IMG/VR virus record: IMGVR_UViG_3300021964_000043
Strand: one strand, 5' to 3'
DNA length: 20,000 bases
Source of the DNA: an uncultured virus (IMG/VR IMGVR_UViG_3300021964_000043)
Taxonomy: Duplodnaviria > Heunggongvirae > Uroviricota > Caudoviricetes
Positions 1 to 9,243 of the stretch are shown here, piece after piece. The notes beneath the pieces were generated by a model that ran no database searches, had not been told where the DNA came from, and was given only the letters and a program-made list of their open reading frames with translations. Position 1 is the first letter of the stretch; the number at the start of each line of letters is the position of its first letter. The position numbers were made by a program, and so were the translations under genes.

Positions 1-72
1 CCATCAGGGTTTGGTAATAGTTGGATGGATGAAAGCAGTGCACAGTAACTTAAAGTTACGGTGGCTGAGAAT

Positions 73-103
73 AAAAAAAGGGAGGGCCGAAACCCTCCCT
101 TTT
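73..103 (-). terminator. Rho-independent terminator after gp32 (possibly bidirectional)
   Basis: Minus strand AAAAGGGAGGGT-TTCG-GCCCTCCCTTTTTTT: GC-rich stem, UUCG loop and U-run directly after the gp32 stop. A short T-run also follows the stem on the + strand. Confidence 0.9.
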
Positions 104-105
104 CC

Positions 106-3695: not shown

Positions 3696-4034
3696 TCAAA
3701 TACTTTCCCAAATTTCATGATCAAGGTAGAGAACAGAGTTAACGCAAATGAAAGCGCTTTTATCATAGCCACCAACTGACCACTGCTTATTCTCTTTGGC
3801 TGGAACGCCAGTGCAATAGTCATATATAGTGGCTTTGACTTTTTTCTCGAAGAAATATTCATCTTCAACATCAAATGTCAACTGCCATTCTACAGAAACT
3901 TTACCACTATCTACATGATTAGTAATAGTTGGCTCGCCAAAAGAATGAACTAGGTCATCATAGCTATAATTTACTACACCTTGATTGCAAGAACCAGTAG
4001 AGTCAAAAGCTTTATTGTCCATCATTTTAATCAT
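3696..4034 (-). CDS. Hypothetical early phage protein (112 aa)
   Basis: ORF with GGAG SD and TAATG coupling to the upstream ORF; sequence SYDDLVHSFGEP...KVSVEW...ATIYDY...WSVGG resembles small conserved phage proteins. Confidence 0.8.
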   Translation of the reverse strand: MIKMMDNKAFDSTGSCNQGVVNYSYDDLVHSFGEPTITNHVDSGKVSVEWQLTFDVEDEYFFEKKVKATIYDYCTGVPAKENKQWSVGGYDKSAFICVNSVLYLDHEIWESI

Positions 4035-4210
4035 TATACAATCTCCGCTTTTTTTAAGACTTGATAAGCTTCAGTAACTTTTTGATTTTCGTTAGCATAA
4101 CCAGCTTCACGAAAACTTTTTTCTATTTCATCGGCTAACCAAGCTACAGTCTGACCGTAGAAATTTTCAGCGCGGTCTTTAAAGACCTTTTTTGCAGTTT
4201 CGAGTTTCAT
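4034..4210 (-). CDS. Small hypothetical protein (58 aa; not in ORF track)
   Basis: Translated by hand: MKLETAKKVFKDRAENFYGQTVAWLADEIEKSFREAGYANENQKVTEAYQVLKKAEIV*; AGGAG SD; TAATG overlaps at both ends. Confidence 0.8.
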   Translation of the reverse strand: MKLETAKKVFKDRAENFYGQTVAWLADEIEKSFREAGYANENQKVTEAYQVLKKAEIV

Positions 4211-4374
4211 TATCTAGCTCCTGATTTATCAGCAATTGACCAAACGCCTAGTACTATACCAAGGATAGCGAACGTAAAGGCTAAACCAAAGTTGTCATTT
4301 TCGTAACCAGTTGGACCATCAATAGCTCCAACAGATAAGATCATACAGACCATAGCTAAAGTAAGTCTAATCAT
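4210..4374 (-). CDS. Small two-helix membrane protein (54 aa; not in ORF track)
   Basis: MIRLTLAMVCMILSVGAIDGPTGYENDNFGLAFTFAILGIVLGVWSIADKSGAR*; TAATG coupling on both sides; two hydrophobic segments. Confidence 0.78.
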   Translation of the reverse strand: MIRLTLAMVCMILSVGAIDGPTGYENDNFGLAFTFAILGIVLGVWSIADKSGAR

Positions 4375-4649
4375 TATTTTACACTCCATCCAAAATTTTC
4401 AACTAAGAAGTCGTTGCCTTTATCTTCAGCAATCGCCATGCAAACAGCTTCACGAACGATTGTATCAAGGTTGTTAAGATACTTAGCAGCAGTTGGGATA
4501 TTAACACCATTGCCATCAACGATGAAGTTATATACAACTTCTACGTCGTTAGCATCTTGCTTGTACATATCAGCCATATCTTCTTGGATTGCCCAATCGC
4601 TTTTGGCTTCGTTCTTGTAGCTTTTGATGAGGTTCTTAAGAGTTTTCAT
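4374..4649 (-). CDS. Hypothetical early protein (91 aa)
   Basis: First ORF after the promoter at 4685-4713; start at ATG 4649 (MKTLKNLIK) after AAGGA SD. Confidence 0.8.
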   Translation of the reverse strand: MKTLKNLIKSYKNEAKSDWAIQEDMADMYKQDANDVEVVYNFIVDGNGVNIPTAAKYLNNLDTIVREAVCMAIAEDKGNDFLVENFGWSVK

Positions 4650-4684
4650 TTTGGACTTCCTTTCCTTTTCCATTTTATAGATAT

Positions 4685-4713
4685 ATTATATCACAATTTT
4701 TTCACTTTGTAAA
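4685..4713 (-). promoter_or_regulatory. Early phage promoter with A-rich UP element
   Basis: TTTACA (4713-4708) N17 TATAAT (4690-4685); poly-A/T tracts upstream. Confidence 0.82.
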
Positions 4714-4774
4714 GGAAAAAGTGAAAAAAAGTTTCCAATGATTACAATCACTTGTAATTTTTTTTGAAAAAAGT

Positions 4775-5044
4775 TTAAGCTGTGTGGCTAAACTTAGTCA
4801 CGCTATCAATCAAAAATGATCGCCATTCGTTCTTATCAATATCAACTACACGCAATGCATTGATAGTTTGATCTACGCCATTCCATTCTTCTGAACCAGT
4901 CTTTGGCATAATACTTTCAGGGATTAGTTCCTGCTTAAGAGTGGCTTGCATAATACGCTCTTCGCCATTCTTTTTAATAAATTTGACTTGGCATACTCCA
5001 TTACGAAGCATATCAAGCATTTCAGATCTACTATAACTAGTCAT
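4775..5044 (-). CDS. WYL_2/DUF2693-like SH3/Sm beta-barrel protein
   Basis: L..GVCQVKFIKKNGEERIMQATL ... VVDIDKNEWRSFLIDSV fits the F.K.dG..R....TL / D.....WRSF pattern of this phage family. Confidence 0.75.
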   Translation of the reverse strand: MTSYSRSEMLDMLRNGVCQVKFIKKNGEERIMQATLKQELIPESIMPKTGSEEWNGVDQTINALRVVDIDKNEWRSFLIDSVTKFSHTA

Positions 5045-5253
5045 TACAAATACTCCACGAATGTTGATTTAGATGGGTTGTGTCTCGTCTCTGACGATCT
5101 AGGAAAATAAGTTAAGATTTCTTTTACTACTCTTACGCAGCGATTTCCTGCAGTGTCATACTCAGCATAATACTTAGTATTGACTTCTTTAACGAGCTCT
5201 CGACGGACTCCATCTTCAAACATATCCAGTTGTGATGTTACTCCATTAGGCAT
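5044..5253 (-). CDS. Hypothetical protein (69 aa)
   Basis: GAGGAGG SD, TAATG overlaps with both neighbours. Confidence 0.75.
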   Translation of the reverse strand: MPNGVTSQLDMFEDGVRRELVKEVNTKYYAEYDTAGNRCVRVVKEILTYFPRSSETRHNPSKSTFVEYL

Positions 5254-5627
5254 TAGTTCCTCCTCATTTTTGCGTAGTCCTCAGCTGAGGACCCTCGTCC
5301 AACTGGGACGATGTTTGATTTATGCATTGTTGCGAGTCCGACGATGTAGTCTCCGGAATAGACGTTTGTTGTTTTTTTCGTTGCGATTGGAACGATACGG
5401 TCCGACGTCGGGATTGACTTATAATCTGGTGTAGACCTGCGATATGACTCTTTGGGCGCATATTCTTTAAACTCCCGTTTTTTTGTTTTAAGTTGAGATG
5501 GATGACAACCCATCTTCATCAGCCAAGCGTCATGCTCAGCTTGAGCTTTTTCCCAACCAGGCTGTCTTCGAGTCTTACGCTTTTTAATATTGAGGGATGA
5601 CATCCCTCTTACAAGATGCATAGTCAT
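5253..5627 (-). CDS. Conserved hypothetical T4-like phage protein
   Basis: C-terminal YSGDYIVGLATMHKSNIVPV motif recalled from T4-like phage hypotheticals; likely start MTMHLVRG at 5627, just after the upstream stop. Confidence 0.75.
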   Translation of the reverse strand: MTMHLVRGMSSLNIKKRKTRRQPGWEKAQAEHDAWLMKMGCHPSQLKTKKREFKEYAPKESYRRSTPDYKSIPTSDRIVPIATKKTTNVYSGDYIVGLATMHKSNIVPVGRGSSAEDYAKMRRN

Positions 5628-5628
5628 A

Positions 5629-5916
5629 TTAGTTCCAATCACTATCATAGTCACGTTGATCAGCTACACGCTCACCATAGTGCTCTTGAAGATATTGTGG
5701 GCCATCAGTCCAATGGTTATGATTTTCATCCATACGAGCAATTTCAGCATCAAACTTTTTAGATGCCTTGCGTGTACGTTCAGTGGTATTTGACCACTTA
5801 CGAGCTTCAACGGCACGCTTATTAGCATGCTTTTGAGCTATTTTTTTGATGAGTTGAGCGCGCTTGGTATATTGAAGATCAGTCATACCAGCAACTTTTG
5901 ATTTGAGAATTTTCAT
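5629..5916 (-). CDS. Hypothetical early protein (95 aa)
   Basis: AAGGAAGGA SD directly after the promoter at 5951-5979. Confidence 0.75.
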   Translation of the reverse strand: MKILKSKVAGMTDLQYTKRAQLIKKIAQKHANKRAVEARKWSNTTERTRKASKKFDAEIARMDENHNHWTDGPQYLQEHYGERVADQRDYDSDWN

Positions 5917-5950
5917 AATATAGTCCTTCCTTTAATTATCTAATGTAAAC

Positions 5951-5979
5951 ATTATATCACACTTTTGCGCGATTGTAAA
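5951..5979 (-). promoter_or_regulatory. Early phage promoter
   Basis: TTTACA (5979-5974) N17 TATAAT (5956-5951), TGTGA before the -10. Confidence 0.82.
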
Positions 5980-5988
5980 GGACTTTTT

Positions 5989-6168
5989 TCACTTTTTTTG
6001 AATTTTTTTTAGTTCATCCAGCTCTTTCTGAGCTGCAACATATTTGTCCATATAGTAATGCTTTTCTTTTTCGAGATCAGCAATCATTTGTTTGTATGTC
6101 TGTTCCATAGTCATAATATCTGGTGTTTGGTCATTTGGCGATTTATATGTTGATGATGGTAACTGCAT
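5989..6168 (-). CDS. Small coiled-coil-like protein (59 aa; not in ORF track) directly downstream of the structured RNA
   Basis: MQLPSSTYKSPNDQTPDIMTMEQTYKQMIADLEKEKHYYMDKYVAAQKELDELKKIQKK*; strong GGAGG SD. Confidence 0.7.
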   Translation of the reverse strand: MQLPSSTYKSPNDQTPDIMTMEQTYKQMIADLEKEKHYYMDKYVAAQKELDELKKIQKK

Positions 6169-6179
6169 ATATCCTCCAT

Positions 6180-6608
6180 TTAGAGAGCCTTTTTGCCTCG
6201 TGCTCAGGAGGGGTCCCTTTCTAGTAGTTATGGTAGGATCTTAGCAAGTCTTACTACATCTATTCGTGTGGCTCCTACCAGCGCACGAATTTGAAACCGG
6301 CCGGGGCTAACCGTGGCCCCGGATGCACTTATTTCGGAGTGACCCGCCTTGAATAAACATTCAAGGTTTTTTTATTAAGCAGAGCCAGCAAATAACCGGG
6401 CTGGTTGCAGTTTGCGTTCCTCAATTTTTATCCTGGACGAACGGACCATTTCCAGTTGAGCCTTTCTTATGAGGGCGCTCTATACGTCTCCCACCAGTGT
6501 CTTAATTTTAGAGTCGTTTACTGGCTTAACCGCGTTATGTCGCTCGACTTTAGTTGGGTACGTTCGGCGTGATTGCCAGGCTTTCCCCGTTTGCCTTTTC
6601 CATTTTAT
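6180..6608 (-). ncRNA. Candidate large structured non-coding RNA (or long structured 5' leader), family unrecognised
   Basis: ~430 nt with no ORF of 60 aa or more, GC-richer than the flanks, dedicated promoter, about 10 hand-identified helices and several loop-loop/pseudoknot complementarities. Confidence 0.7.
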
Positions 6609-6614
6609 GATATT

Positions 6615-6643
6615 ATTATATCACAAAACTTTGTCCTTGTAAA
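6615..6643 (-). promoter_or_regulatory. Early phage promoter driving the non-coding region
   Basis: TTTACA (6643-6638) N17 TATAAT (6620-6615), TGTGA before the -10; no SD-led ORF follows for ~430 nt. Confidence 0.82.
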
Positions 6644-6651
6644 GGACTTTT

Positions 6652-6888
6652 TTAGGCTTTTTTCGAAATATATTCGTAAAACTCAGTAGCCTTTTCGATC
6701 ACTTTATTTGGATTGTACATATCAGGAGTGTACGTTTCAAGTGCCTCCTTTACGTTTTGACCATGTTCTTTTGCTTGATCGACCATCTGATACATCATAT
6801 TCATTTGCATATCATATTGTTGGTCCATCATTTCTTTGGCCATTTTGAGAGTTTCGAGTCTGATCTCGAAGGGATTTTTGTTAGCCAT
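6652..6888 (-). CDS. Conserved small T4-like phage protein (78 aa)
   Basis: NPFEIRLETLKMAKEM...VIEKATEFYEYISKK pattern recalled from T4-like phages; perfect AAGGAGG SD. Confidence 0.85.
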   Translation of the reverse strand: MANKNPFEIRLETLKMAKEMMDQQYDMQMNMMYQMVDQAKEHGQNVKEALETYTPDMYNPNKVIEKATEFYEYISKKA

Positions 6889-6919
6889 AGTAGCCTCCTT
6901 TTTGTGTGTTTGTGTGTTT

Positions 6920-7213
6920 GCTACTTTTCTGTTCCAAGGTAAGTAGCCAACCCGTCAGTTTATGCCGCTAGGGCGTAACCTGAAGGTGCAAAGTTATCGT
7001 TTGCATTTGCTTTTGTGCGACTATTACGCGTTCGCCTCCGGTGACCTCCACTTACCTATTAACTACCTGTCGATCCTATTTCGCCCCCATCATAAACACA
7101 CTGCCCGCTTTATCAGTGCGTTCCAGAATTAACTGGAGCAGTGTGTTTATGGTGGAGGCGGCGGGTACTGCCCCCGCGTCCAGTATAGCTTTCGACTTGT
7201 TTCATCGATCACA
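6920..7213 (-). ncRNA. ssrA: Two-piece (circularly permuted) tmRNA, alphaproteobacterial type
   Basis: Acceptor piece ~7213-7150 ends GGACGCGGGGGCAGTACCCGCCGCCTCCACCA. Intervening hairpin 7149-7089. Coding piece starts GGGGGCGAAATAGGATCGAC at 7088. Stem GGGGGCG/CGCCTCC has the G3.U70 Ala determinant. Tag ORF 7004-6960 = ANDNFAPSGYALAA*, followed by a GCTACTT/AAGTAGC hairpin. Confidence 0.95.
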
Positions 7214-7226
7214 AATTATATATACA

Positions 7227-7436
7227 TCAATCAATCTTAACTTGATCAACTGACTTAAAAACTCTTACTTTTTTAGTTTCATCATTTTGACAATATTGTT
7301 CTTCATATGTCTTAATGATAAATTTTTCTACGAGAGGCTCCGAATATTTTGGTCTAGATCCATAGTCTGGAATAAGTGGACCAATATAAATTACTATCCA
7401 TATCCACGATAAAAAAAGTAAGAGCCAACCAACCAT
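7227..7436 (-). CDS. Small membrane-anchored protein (69 aa)
   Basis: N-terminal hydrophobic helix MVGWLLLFLSWIWIVIYIG; TAATG coupling to the upstream ORF. Confidence 0.65.
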   Translation of the reverse strand: MVGWLLLFLSWIWIVIYIGPLIPDYGSRPKYSEPLVEKFIIKTYEEQYCQNDETKKVRVFKSVDQVKID

Positions 7437-7564
7437 TAGTTGCGTCTTTTCTCATTATACATGAGAAGCAATGTAAGACTAATAGTCAAAACTAGTAATA
7501 CAACTGATTGGGCAGCAGCTGCCCAAGCAGCTCCTAAAGCTGTAAGTACATAGTATTTCATCAT
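7436..7564 (-). CDS. Small hydrophobic peptide (42 aa; not in ORF track)
   Basis: MMKYYVLTALGAAWAAAAQSVVLLVLTISLTLLLMYNEKRRN*; exactly fills the gap with TAATG overlaps at both ends. Confidence 0.65.
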   Translation of the reverse strand: MMKYYVLTALGAAWAAAAQSVVLLVLTISLTLLLMYNEKRRN

Positions 7565-8082
7565 TAGAAATTCTCCAACGCTTTATTTGCTTCACTATCG
7601 TCAGTATTGTTAAAAGCGTTATCCACAACTTGACGATTTGTTGGATCTACACTCATCTGAATAAACGTCCGATAGTAAATCCCATCCATAATAACCATAC
7701 GATGTTCGACCGTATAGTTTGAAATATCGACATTCGTAAAACCAGACTTTGCTAGTTTGGTTGACTTACGACTTGATATTCCTTGTCCACCTTTACCACT
7801 ATCAGTAATAAAAGTTTTGACTTCAGCTGAAGTCCTAGCAGCAATTTTATCTCCAAGGCCAACTTTTGCTTCATGCATTGCCTTGTCTATTGAGAATTGC
7901 ATGTCGTCTGAATGTCCAGTTCCAACTGCGTAGATGACAGACTCTTTATCTTCTGGCACAGCGAGAAACCAACTTGGAACATCCATACCTCCTACTTTAA
8001 TAGGAGGCTGTTCTTTTTGTCCAATTGAACTACAAGCACTTAAAGAAAGAGCAGCAACAATTGGTAATACATAGGCTTTCAT
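7564..8082 (-). CDS. Lipoprotein, LPP20-like
   Basis: True start MKAYVLPIVAALSLSAC (lipobox LSAC) at 8082 with GAGG SD; VPSWFL..P...IYAVGTG.S.DMQFSIDKA...AK pattern. Confidence 0.82.
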   Translation of the reverse strand: MKAYVLPIVAALSLSACSSIGQKEQPPIKVGGMDVPSWFLAVPEDKESVIYAVGTGHSDDMQFSIDKAMHEAKVGLGDKIAARTSAEVKTFITDSGKGGQGISSRKSTKLAKSGFTNVDISNYTVEHRMVIMDGIYYRTFIQMSVDPTNRQVVDNAFNNTDDSEANKALENF

Positions 8083-8092
8083 AACAGACCTC

Positions 8093-8398
8093 TTAAAAAT
8101 TGTAGTCGTAAAACTTAACTGGCTTATCACTAAGCGAGTAACGACCACCATATTTGTCTTGCCAACCTTTTTTATTAAGGCGAACACGAAAGACAGGGTT
8201 ATTAACATTAGAAGTAATTTCCCACTTCTGATCTTCTTGATTCGATGTGTGACCAAAGAACCCACCAGGATGAAAATCGCGCTTCCAAGGAAGAGCCTCG
8301 GTATCCATAGCGCGAATTTCAATGGTTTTTTCAGAAATTACCTTAACAACTTCATAAGGACTTACATCTGAATAACCAAGCTGATTAGCATATTTCAT
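8093..8398 (-). CDS. Hypothetical early protein (101 aa)
   Basis: Start MKYANQLGYSDVSPYEVVKV after AAGGA SD, first gene after the promoter at 8434-8462; ends KFYDYNF. Confidence 0.82.
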   Translation of the reverse strand: MKYANQLGYSDVSPYEVVKVISEKTIEIRAMDTEALPWKRDFHPGGFFGHTSNQEDQKWEITSNVNNPVFRVRLNKKGWQDKYGGRYSLSDKPVKFYDYNF

Positions 8399-8433
8399 AT
8401 TTTTATTCCTTCCTTTTTCCATTTTGTACATAT

Positions 8434-8462
8434 ATTATAACACATAAATTTGCGATTGTAAA
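8434..8462 (-). promoter_or_regulatory. Early phage promoter
   Basis: GTTTACA (TTTACA at 8462-8457) N17 TATAAT (8439-8434); A-tract UP element. Confidence 0.82.
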
Positions 8463-8495
8463 CACTTTTTTTCACTTTTTTTATATTTTTTTTCT

Positions 8496-8503
8496 TATAA
8501 ATA
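8496..8503 (+). promoter_or_regulatory. T4-type late promoter
   Basis: Exact TATAAATA at the strand switch, upstream of the + strand small-gene cluster. Confidence 0.7.
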
Positions 8504-8523
8504 ATAGCAGATATGAGAGGGTA

Positions 8524-8694
8524 ATGCTAAAAAAGAAGTTAAAGCGTAAATTTACAACTTCACCACCAAATAGAAGGTGGAAAGAAAAAACATATAAATG
8601 CCCAATCAAAATGCACGGACCAACTAGGTGGGAAACTACCAAAGTAGAAAGGAACGGAAAAGTATACGAGATATGTAATCTCGTGCGATGTTAA
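8524..8694 (+). CDS. Small basic protein (56 aa; not in ORF track)
   Basis: MLKKKLKRKFTTSPPNRRWKEKTYKCPIKMHGPTRWETTKVERNGKVYEICNLVRC*; GAGAGGG SD after the late promoter. Confidence 0.5.
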   Translation: MLKKKLKRKFTTSPPNRRWKEKTYKCPIKMHGPTRWETTKVERNGKVYEICNLVRC

Positions 8695-8754
8695 TGAACT
8701 TCTTTACTATGAGTTTTAAGATGGTTACATAACCACTAACGCCAGAGGAAGTTT

Positions 8755-9243
8755 ATGATCGATCCAATAACAGCATTAGCAACTGCAACCAGTGCATTTA
8801 ATCTTATCAAAAAAGGTTTTGAAGTCGGCCGAGATGTTGAATCTATGGGCTCAGACCTTGGACGCTGGATGGGCGCTATGTCTGACCTCAAGAAGGCAGA
8901 CGAATACGCCAAGAAGCCACCCCTATTCAAAAAAATATTTAACGCTGGTTCAGTCGAAGAAGAAGCCATGGCTGCCTTCATGGCGAAGAAGAAGGCAGAG
9001 GATATGCGTGATGAACTCAAGAAATTGATTTCTTGGACACGAGGGCCTTCTGCATGGGATGAACTTCTACGCATGGAAGCAGAGATTCGTAAGAAGAGAC
9101 AACAAGCAATATACGATCAACAAGAAAGACAGAGAAAAGTTTTTGAAACTATTGCTATCGTGTTGTTGATTGGACTTTGTGCTGGAATTCTTGTTGGTGG
9201 TGCTTGGTGGTTAATAGAGTATAAAGCAAACAGAGGTTACTAA
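8755..9243 (+). CDS. Conserved phage protein with coiled coil and C-terminal TM helix
   Basis: MIDPITALATATSAFNLIKKGFEVGRDVESM...; GAGGA SD; C-terminal IAIVLLIGLCAGILVGGAWWL. Confidence 0.85.
   Translation: MIDPITALATATSAFNLIKKGFEVGRDVESMGSDLGRWMGAMSDLKKADEYAKKPPLFKKIFNAGSVEEEAMAAFMAKKKAEDMRDELKKLISWTRGPSAWDELLRMEAEIRKKRQQAIYDQQERQRKVFETIAIVLLIGLCAGILVGGAWWLIEYKANRGY

Follow-up and report, generated by a model that had tools for sequence, protein, structure and literature searches.

A modular, pseudoknot-rich candidate RNA gene in the tRNA slot of marine and estuarine T4-like phages

What is encoded in the roughly 430 nucleotides (nt) at positions 6180-6608 of the viral record IMGVR_UViG_3300021964_000043, an interval without an evident gene that lies next to a transfer-messenger RNA (tmRNA) gene? 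We analyzed a 20,000-nt stretch of this uncultured virus (hereafter, the window), which belongs to a T4-like myophage, as indicated by PHROG matches to gp32, gp59 helicase loader, gp2 DNA end protector, and head closure, tail tube and baseplate proteins. An original prediction made from the letters of the sequence had placed here a single, structured, orphan RNA with its own early promoter. Here we show that the RNA is not an orphan, because homologs exist, and that the proposed fold of about 430 nt gives way to a 145-nt core of three pseudoknots followed by exchangeable add-on modules. The lack of any Rfam match, the existence of homologs, and the covariation among them support a functional-looking, uncatalogued phage non-coding RNA (ncRNA) on the minus strand.

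The three-pseudoknot core and its homologs

The core occupies positions 6452-6596 of the minus strand (145 nt) and consists of three consecutive pseudoknots, PK-A, PK-B and PK-C, in which eight helices were read (Table 1). The second helix of PK-A is GAGG/CCUC in the family generally and GGGG/ACCC in the window, and the hairpin inside this knot has the family form GGC-AAUNNN-GCC. A small hairpin, GCG/CGC, lies between the strands of PK-B, and the conserved linker of PK-C reads UCAUNAGAAAG across the family alignment.

Table 1. Positions of the RNA, its modules and the adjacent features in the window
Feature	Positions	Strand	Description
Two-piece permuted alpha-type phage tmRNA	6917..7249	-	Rfam alpha_tmRNA 106 bits, tmRNA_permuted 118 bits
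78-aa open reading frame (ORF)	6652..6888	-	Between tmRNA and RNA
Early sigma-70-type promoter	6615..6643	-	TTTACA, 17-nt spacer, TG-TATAAT; 11/12 matches
PK-A	6553..6596	-	AGGC/GCCU crosses GGGG/ACCC; hairpin GGC-AAUCAC-GCC inside; alignment A4 columns 1-44
PK-B	6490..6548	-	GUCG (6545-6548) pairs with CGAC (6513-6516) in the loop of CCAGU/ACUGG (6520-6524 with 6494-6498)
PK-C	6452..6492	-	Stem GGG/CCC; loop GAGC pairs with downstream GCUC across conserved linker UCAUAAGAAAG
Second PK-C-like knot	6410..6455	-	CUGGA/UCCAG; loop CGUUC pairs with GAACG; read from the sequence
Hairpin GCA-CAGC...GCUG-GCUC-UGC	6379..6408	-	Inner stem varies by lineage
Inserted hairpin CCUUGAAU/AUUCAAGG	6346..6367		Confined to the window and L189; missing from L009 and the rest
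Two hairpins	6301..6341	-	CACU-CCGAAAUA-AGUG and CCGGGGC-CACGGUUA-GCCCCGG
3' domain	6232..6290	-	Hairpin AUUCGUG/CACGAAU; loop GGUAGGA (6273-6279) can pair with UCCUACC (6232-6238)
Tail hairpin GAGC...GCUC	6185..6205	-	Just before the ribosome-binding site; no U-run after it
59-aa ORF	5989..6168	-	GGAGGA 5 nt before ATG; 74% identical to the L009 protein

Relatives of the RNA (denoted by L numbers) were reached through both flanking genes and through the core itself. The 78-aa ORF has 127 related stretches in IMG/VR; among the 80 of these loci that were examined for the RNA with blastn, nhmmer and a covariance model, only L009 carries it, and in the others genes directly succeed the 78-aa ORF. 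L009 keeps the promoter, the 5' part and a 162-nt 3' part, the middle differing by insertions and deletions; the 3' part is 89.5% identical over 162 nt, compared with about 75% in the flanking genes. Relatives of the 59-aa protein led to L109 and L110, where the 5' part is present and the 3' domain is missing. A search pattern of 21 letters (18 specified bases), drawn from PK-A in the shared 5' part, retrieved 20 hits from IMG/VR, 19 of them family members, 70 hits from metagenomes (27 members, the other 43 lacking the rest of the motif), and 35 hits from prokaryote genomes, one of which is a member. After duplicates, truncated copies and a false regular-expression hit (L150) were dropped, the core set comprised 24 full-length sequences (23 distinct rows); the divergent types L123 and L195 were kept outside it.

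A covariance model of the three-knot core, R1, matches window positions 6452-6596 with 132.1 bits (E 5.5e-35, model positions 1-153), the window itself being in the seed, and matches L219, which is outside the seed, with 129.5 bits. The minimal natural form, that of L160, is about 145 nt long. L219 (G008:C85:61388-61536) resides on a 113-kb contig that was binned into a metagenome-assembled genome (MAG) of Marinovum (Roseobacter group). This contig also has a phage-type tmRNA, and the bacterial tmRNA is found on another contig of the MAG; it is probably a mis-binned phage contig and possibly a weak hint at the host.

Covariation was counted on alignment A4 of the core set (157 columns, 30 pairs, 688 cells), with partners slid by 1-3 columns and 500 shuffles as controls. 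Standard pairs fill 93.9% of the cells, compared with 27.0-47.0% in the slid controls and a mean of 85.5% in the shuffles, none of which reaches the observed value. Changes on both sides occur in 10 of the 30 pairs (1-5 when slid; mean of 7.6 in the shuffles, with 20 of the 500 reaching 10), and the covariation score is 0.246 (0.030-0.080 when slid; 0.101 in the shuffles, 0 of 500 reaching it). Thus, both homologs and covariation, on which the original prediction had staked its case, were found.

The compensating changes in A4 are located in PK-B and PK-C. Helices 4 and 6 of PK-B are paired in 100% of the cells, the variants of this knot being GUCG/CGAC, CCCG/CGGG and UCCG/CGGA, and CCUGU/GCAGG, CCAGU/ACUGG and CCUAG/CUAGG; helix 6 corresponds to the predicted GCCAGU/ACUGGU pairing, which covaries. 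The second stem of PK-C is different in almost every lineage and still complementary (CGUUC/GAACG, GGCAG/CUGCC, GUCGG/CCGGC, UCAGAUC/GAUCUGA). This stem, helix 8, is counted as only 67.4% paired, though each row has its own complement, because MAFFT sets it out of register in some rows. Three helices are invariant in A4, hence uninformative. In PK-A, pair 12-43 is A-U, G-U or G-C, and a scan that left the hairpin free showed GGC/GCC replaced by GAC/GUC in nine further distinct contigs. The AGGC/GCCU helix of PK-A never varies and therefore yields no covariation information; a scan leaving this helix free added only three hits, all of which lack the remainder of the motif. About 60 of the 157 columns are invariant, and the 18 bases of the search pattern are invariant by construction.

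The minus strand is identified as the RNA strand because the G-U pairs (12 at pair 12-43 and 13 at pair 89-111) and the changes from U-A to U-G fit that strand only. An RNA on the plus strand, where the fold is slightly better (z = -2.22), was rejected, given that the G-U pairs and the one-sided changes fit only the minus strand.

The RNA is absent from the catalogs searched. In Rfam 15, no family reaches its gathering score at 6180-6608, and the tmRNA is the only RNA that passes in the window; at E values up to 10, only scattered chance-level hits appear in this interval, and the same holds for the L160 and L112 members. Blastn against 50,697 GenBank phage records recovered short tmRNA matches only, including those of the Melnitz phages, and blastn of the L112 member against the GenBank phages recovered none. 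No description of this RNA was found in the literature searched.

Add-on modules, promoter and transcript

Positions 6180-6451, on the 3' side of the core, are a series of lineage-specific, exchangeable add-on modules. The second PK-C-like knot has the same loop as PK-C of L113-type relatives, and only the near-identical L189 shares the knot; the predicted helix CUGGA/UCCAG is thus present in the window but common only to L189. The inner stem of the 6379-6408 hairpin is CAGC/GCUG in the window, CUAGG/CCUAG in L009 and CUCUC/GGGAG elsewhere (GAGAG in L118), and the entire hairpin is absent from L126, L137, L143, L160, L174 and L201. On the plus strand, the inserted hairpin at 6346-6367 is a terminator-like hairpin (9 pairs) followed by TTTTTTT, within an RNA gene of the opposite strand; perhaps it halts antisense transcription, or perhaps it is a small mobile hairpin.

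In the relatives, the stems of the two hairpins at 6301-6341 are GGUA/UACC, and GUGGGGC/GCCCCAC, GUGGAGC/GCUCCAC or CCUGGGC/GCCCAGG, with the loops kept. These hairpins were compared by eye, the MAFFT alignment A5 being out of register and not used for a pair count. Positions 1310-1345 of L014 contain nearly the same loop as the CCGGGGC hairpin of the window, in the form GAGGGGC-CAAUGGUUA-GCCCCUC followed by a U-run, like a terminator, and this loop type may mark a shared hairpin of these phages. The 3' domain occurs in five distinct sequences including the window, in all of which its possible pseudoknot GGUAGGA/UCCUACC is invariant. The tail hairpin is kept as UGAGCA/UGCUCA in L109, L110, L156, L192 and L191, and as UGAGUA/UGCUCA in L197.

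Six of the ten helices originally drawn by eye stand and four fail. In addition to the two discussed above, CCAGC/GCUGG, CACU/AGUG and CCGGGGC/GCCCCGG are kept or covarying in the sequences of relatives, and AUUCGUG/CACGAAU is kept, with U-A changed to U-G in three of the five sequences. Conversely, ACGU-CCCA/UGGG-ACGU is 60.2% paired, no better than the slid or shuffled controls; GUAGU/ACUAC and CCUC/GAGG are not kept in L189, L009, L191 and L197; and the helix at 6346-6367 is the insertion confined to the window and L189. The letters of the proposed tertiary pair CUCUA/UAGAG, likewise, exist only in these two sequences.

The consensus early promoter that had been noticed upstream of the RNA is indeed there as a consensus match, with TG before the -10 box, and predicts a transcription start at about 6607-6609. 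This promoter is common to the window, L009, L189, L191, L197 and L219. The RNA thus has its own promoter in the window, but this is a lineage-specific arrangement, most relatives carrying the core directly 3' of tRNA-Trp. The -35 box is located within a small hairpin or palindrome, GTCCTTTACAAGGAC (6633-6647), which has a terminator-like score on both strands, and another promoter built alike comes after the 59-aa ORF. Because of this palindrome and the twin promoter, the promoters at 6643->6615 and 5979->5951, both on the minus strand, look like terminator-promoter units between small early genes.

Neither a promoter-like site above 9 of 12 matches nor a terminator-like site on the minus strand occurs between 6615 and 6168. 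Since no terminator separates the RNA from the 59-aa ORF, the RNA is probably the first part of that transcript, so that the pseudoknot RNA and the 59-aa ORF probably share one transcript. The claim that the interval lacks a credible ORF was confirmed: only short frames lie between 6608 and the ATG at 6168, and a six-frame comparison with L009 gives no shared open frame with a start codon, so a protein-coding reading was rejected. About 7 of 10 differences in the longest frame shared with L009, counted on translations, alter the residue. A 17-codon AUG frame at the transcript start was also discarded; it has 11 codons in L009 and is absent where a tRNA precedes the RNA.

Six RNA-library runs contain part of 5950-7300, and four of these were compared. 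Contigs from three metatranscriptome runs, belonging to three studies, match 6154-6647, two of them without differences: those of run X17 cover 6246-6414 (no differences) and 6389-6554, those of run X18 cover 6154-6358 and 6394-6647, and that of run X19 covers 6460-6587 (no differences). Parts of 5950-7300 that are not covered by RNA contigs, such as 5996-6153, carry no evidential weight. Contigs at depths of 41.9 and 109, from two salt-marsh metatranscriptomes, match only 6554-6596, that is, PK-A, and then continue as the L262 variant; a PK-A-bearing element of another phage is therefore present in high-depth contigs of RNA libraries. The sequencing runs that contain 6180-6608 are labelled as estuary, salt marsh and marine metagenomes.

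Gene context and comparison with known RNAs

The family occupies a "tRNA slot": the core directly follows tRNA-Trp in most relatives, and in one it is placed between tRNA-Leu and tRNA-Trp. The typical order is another tRNA, tRNA-Trp, 4 nt, and then the core; tRNA-Trp(CCA) is found 4 nt upstream in L109 and L110, and tRNA-Trp likewise in the L112 type; the first helix of the core begins 2-4 nt after the CCA of the tRNA. In L160, the order is tRNA, tRNA, core, tRNA-Trp, and in L118, L137 and L174 the beginning of the core falls within an ORF stop codon. The genes downstream of the core differ among lineages, an ORF with a ribosome-binding site coming next in most relatives. ARAGORN finds no tRNA in the window and nothing at 6180-6608. 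The interval stands out from the AT-rich DNA around it: GC content is 0.487 in 6200-6599, compared with about 0.33-0.45 in other bins, the exception being the tmRNA bin (0.465), and most 400-nt bins across 4000-9000 have a GC content of 0.31-0.45.

The phage tmRNA noticed beside the RNA was confirmed by two Rfam models (Table 1). ARAGORN misses this tmRNA but finds those of the relatives, with the tag ANDNFAPVEYAQAA and similar ones; the tag of the window tmRNA, read from the alignment, is ANDNFAPSGYALAA. RNA contigs join across 7102-7142, the intervening loop of the permuted tmRNA gene. A two-piece tmRNA lies 0.3-2.2 kb upstream of the RNA on the same strand in the window, L009, L109, L110, L189, L126, L137, G005, G006 and G008:C85, that is, in all core-type loci with enough upstream DNA to judge; no tmRNA was found within about 0.9 kb in L160. 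The link between the two RNAs is thus shown only as conserved gene order. Pairing of the RNA with the tmRNA was assessed with duplexfold at four loci, and 3, 2, 12 and 18 of 30 mononucleotide shuffles did as well, in what is a crude and uninformative test. Relatives of the 78-aa ORF are typically located just downstream of a phage two-piece tmRNA, and the ORF has no PHROG match; by its position, its product may be a tmRNA-linked small protein.

PK-A also occurs singly behind gene 32 in other phages. In the divergent type, which includes L123 (1487-1700), L125, L195 and the nine GAC/GUC contigs (L250, L262, L267, L271, L273, L275, L276, L287 and L291), PK-A immediately follows the gene 32 stop codon; the ORF before it in L123 is 69% identical to gp32 of the window. 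The gene 32 position was seen in several of these marine T4-like contigs, with other knots and a terminator next. There is no tmRNA on the 37-kb and 105-kb contigs of this type. Unlike in the L123-type relatives, gene 32 of the window itself (1-105, minus strand) is followed not by PK-A but by a plain terminator hairpin, GGGAGGG...CCCUCCC, with a U-run.

Among catalogued RNAs, the closest analogs by position are the small stable RNAs from the tRNA region of T4, which have been known for decades and whose role is still unknown (PMC3014915). T4 RNAD (species 2, 119 nt) and RNAC (species 1, 139 nt) map to AF158101 70908-71171, directly 3' of tRNA-Arg. The present RNA resembles them in being non-coding and in belonging to the tRNA region of a T4-type phage, directly 3' of a tRNA in most relatives, whereas in the window it is preceded by a promoter instead of a tRNA. 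R1 has no match in AF158101 68000-76000, blastn also gave no T4 match, and RNAC ends in what we read as a T-arm-like hairpin, which the RNA of the window lacks. The likeness to RNAC and RNAD is one of position, and no relationship in sequence or fold was found.

The string of pseudoknots PK1-PK4 in tmRNA invites another comparison, both RNAs being chains of small H-type pseudoknots in variable number. However, no tmRNA model matches at 6180-6608, the RNA has no tRNA-like domain or tag frame, and the tmRNA at 6917-7249 is already complete without it. The sequence GAGGAAAGCC resembles what we take to be the CR-I motif of RNase P; identification as an RNase P RNA was rejected, there being no match to an RNase P model and no partner strand for P4.

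A glutamine riboswitch is described in the 3' domain of marine phage ssrA, beside the two-piece tmRNA of the Methylophilales phage Melnitz (PMC9004378). Like the locus described here, that of Melnitz combines a structured RNA with an adjacent two-piece tmRNA of the alpha type, behind an early promoter and in a marine T4-like myophage (PMC9004378), and the Melnitz tmRNA shares a 50-nt stretch with that of the window. The two differ in size and fold, the Rfam glnA and Downstream-peptide families have no match here, and in the window the 78-aa gene separates the tmRNA from the RNA. A set of 8,495 candidate structured RNAs, some tRNA-like or beside gene 32, is reported in PMC10690425 and comes from IMG/VR, the same collection as the window. 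Six sample numbers are absent from six supplement files of that article (files 1, 2 and 4 lay outside the search), and the family may be listed in it.

Possible roles of the RNA

Taken together, we see about an even chance that this is a modular, pseudoknot-rich gene for a stable, trans-acting RNA of marine or estuarine T4-like phages, freed by tRNA-processing enzymes. Early transcription by host RNA polymerase would produce the RNA as the leading part of a transcript reaching into the 59-aa ORF, and host nucleases that process tRNA and mRNA (RNase P, E and Z) would release it. With its ends locked in knots, the RNA would survive, and it would then work in trans, its target being a protein or RNA engaged in translation or RNA decay; that this partner is a specific one is suggested by the large number of unpaired bases that never vary. 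Release, stability and trans action are inferred.

Several observations weigh against this scenario. The sequences form only 3-5 clades, so that the covarying cells represent few independent events, and the structure was drawn by eye from the same sequences, which favors it over the slid controls. The original prediction had named a Rfam hit, a lack of homologs or covariation, and an unexceptional folding energy as results that would tell against a novel functional RNA; there is no Rfam match, and homologs and covariation were found, but the folding energy is no better than that of dinucleotide shuffles (z = -1.62 for 6180-6608 on the minus strand, -0.58 for 6180-6345 and -0.44 for 6346-6612), in a minimum-free-energy test that does not score pseudoknots. 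None of 25 larger fragments from more distant relatives of the tmRNA region carries the core, nor does a complete 283-kb relative with a tmRNA; the family is patchy, and hence dispensable for this kind of phage. The support from RNA libraries consists of contigs, which cannot show ends, strand or level and may reflect DNA carry-over; there is no discrete species or 5' or 3' end among them, and one contig continues upstream through the promoter to 6647, so that read-through or DNA carry-over is possible. No result points to a binding partner. Finally, with no terminator after the RNA, a role as a cis-acting leader is possible.

Such a leader or punctuation element, in which knots at the 5' end shield the downstream mRNA of the 59-aa ORF from 5'-end-dependent decay once the tRNAs ahead have been removed, or insulate adjacent units while the transcript is processed, is a less probable account that we still take seriously. 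It agrees with the uninterrupted path from the RNA to the ORF and the tail hairpin just ahead of the ribosome-binding site, as well as with the start of the first helix 2-4 nt past the tRNA CCA and the ORF with a ribosome-binding site that comes next in most relatives. However, the downstream genes vary by lineage, in L160 a tRNA rather than an ORF comes next, PK-A is also found 3' of gene 32, ahead of a terminator, and some 60 invariant columns out of 157 exceed the need of a mere roadblock.

It is rather improbable that the modules are selfish or neutral RNA cassettes that spread by recombination among phage tRNA regions and are merely tolerated. Their patchy occurrence among close relatives and the fact that modules are shuffled, duplicated and found singly are what such cassettes would produce. 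Nevertheless, the 3' domain is better conserved than the neighboring genes, selection on the fold is evident from the compensating changes, the RNA has kept its place downstream of the tmRNA, and no endonuclease or other mobility gene adjoins the RNA according to PHROG.

HDV-like ribozymes occur behind phage tRNAs, and PK-A, a double-knot fold that starts 2-4 nt after the CCA, has a strand order that in our reading resembles HDV-like ribozymes without P3; the RNA could thus be a ribozyme that cleaves itself, or a processing signal, releasing the 3' end of the tRNA before it. HDV-like ribozymes are nested double pseudoknots with P1, P1.1, P2, P3/L3 and P4 and a catalytic C in J4/2. We consider this reading very unlikely: no Rfam ribozyme family matches at E values up to 10; by inspection, only 3-4 nt lie between the strands, leaving no room for P3/L3; and the element is kept without a preceding tRNA in the window, L009 and L118 and behind gene 32. 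Least probable of all is a ligand-sensing riboswitch controlling the downstream gene, on the model of the glutamine riboswitch beside the Melnitz tmRNA and in line with the many invariant unpaired bases of the core, given that no riboswitch family matches, the downstream genes vary and L160 has none, and there is no conserved alternative pairing of terminator and anti-terminator.

Beyond the trans-acting RNA gene that we favor lies a bolder claim, which at present looks doubtful, namely, that the three-knot core, and above all PK-A, represents a new class of trans-acting phage RNA with a partner in host translation or RNA decay, or else a new small ribozyme. If this were true, the core or PK-A might, for example, act together with the tRNAs and tmRNA of the phage so that ribosomes or tRNAs stay usable during infection, or might serve as a decoy for a nuclease.

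The family lends itself to experiment: its core of 145 nt has a defined three-knot structure and about 24 natural variants, and one module of 44 nt is also found by itself. In the GenBank set searched with blastn, no cultured phage carries the core. Abundant, uncultured marine and estuarine T4-like phages, too, fill their tRNA slots with elaborate folds under selection, downstream of a phage tmRNA. The family would add a pseudoknot-only architecture to the RNA catalogs, and the partner of the core could reveal how these phages handle host translation, tRNA pools or RNA decay.

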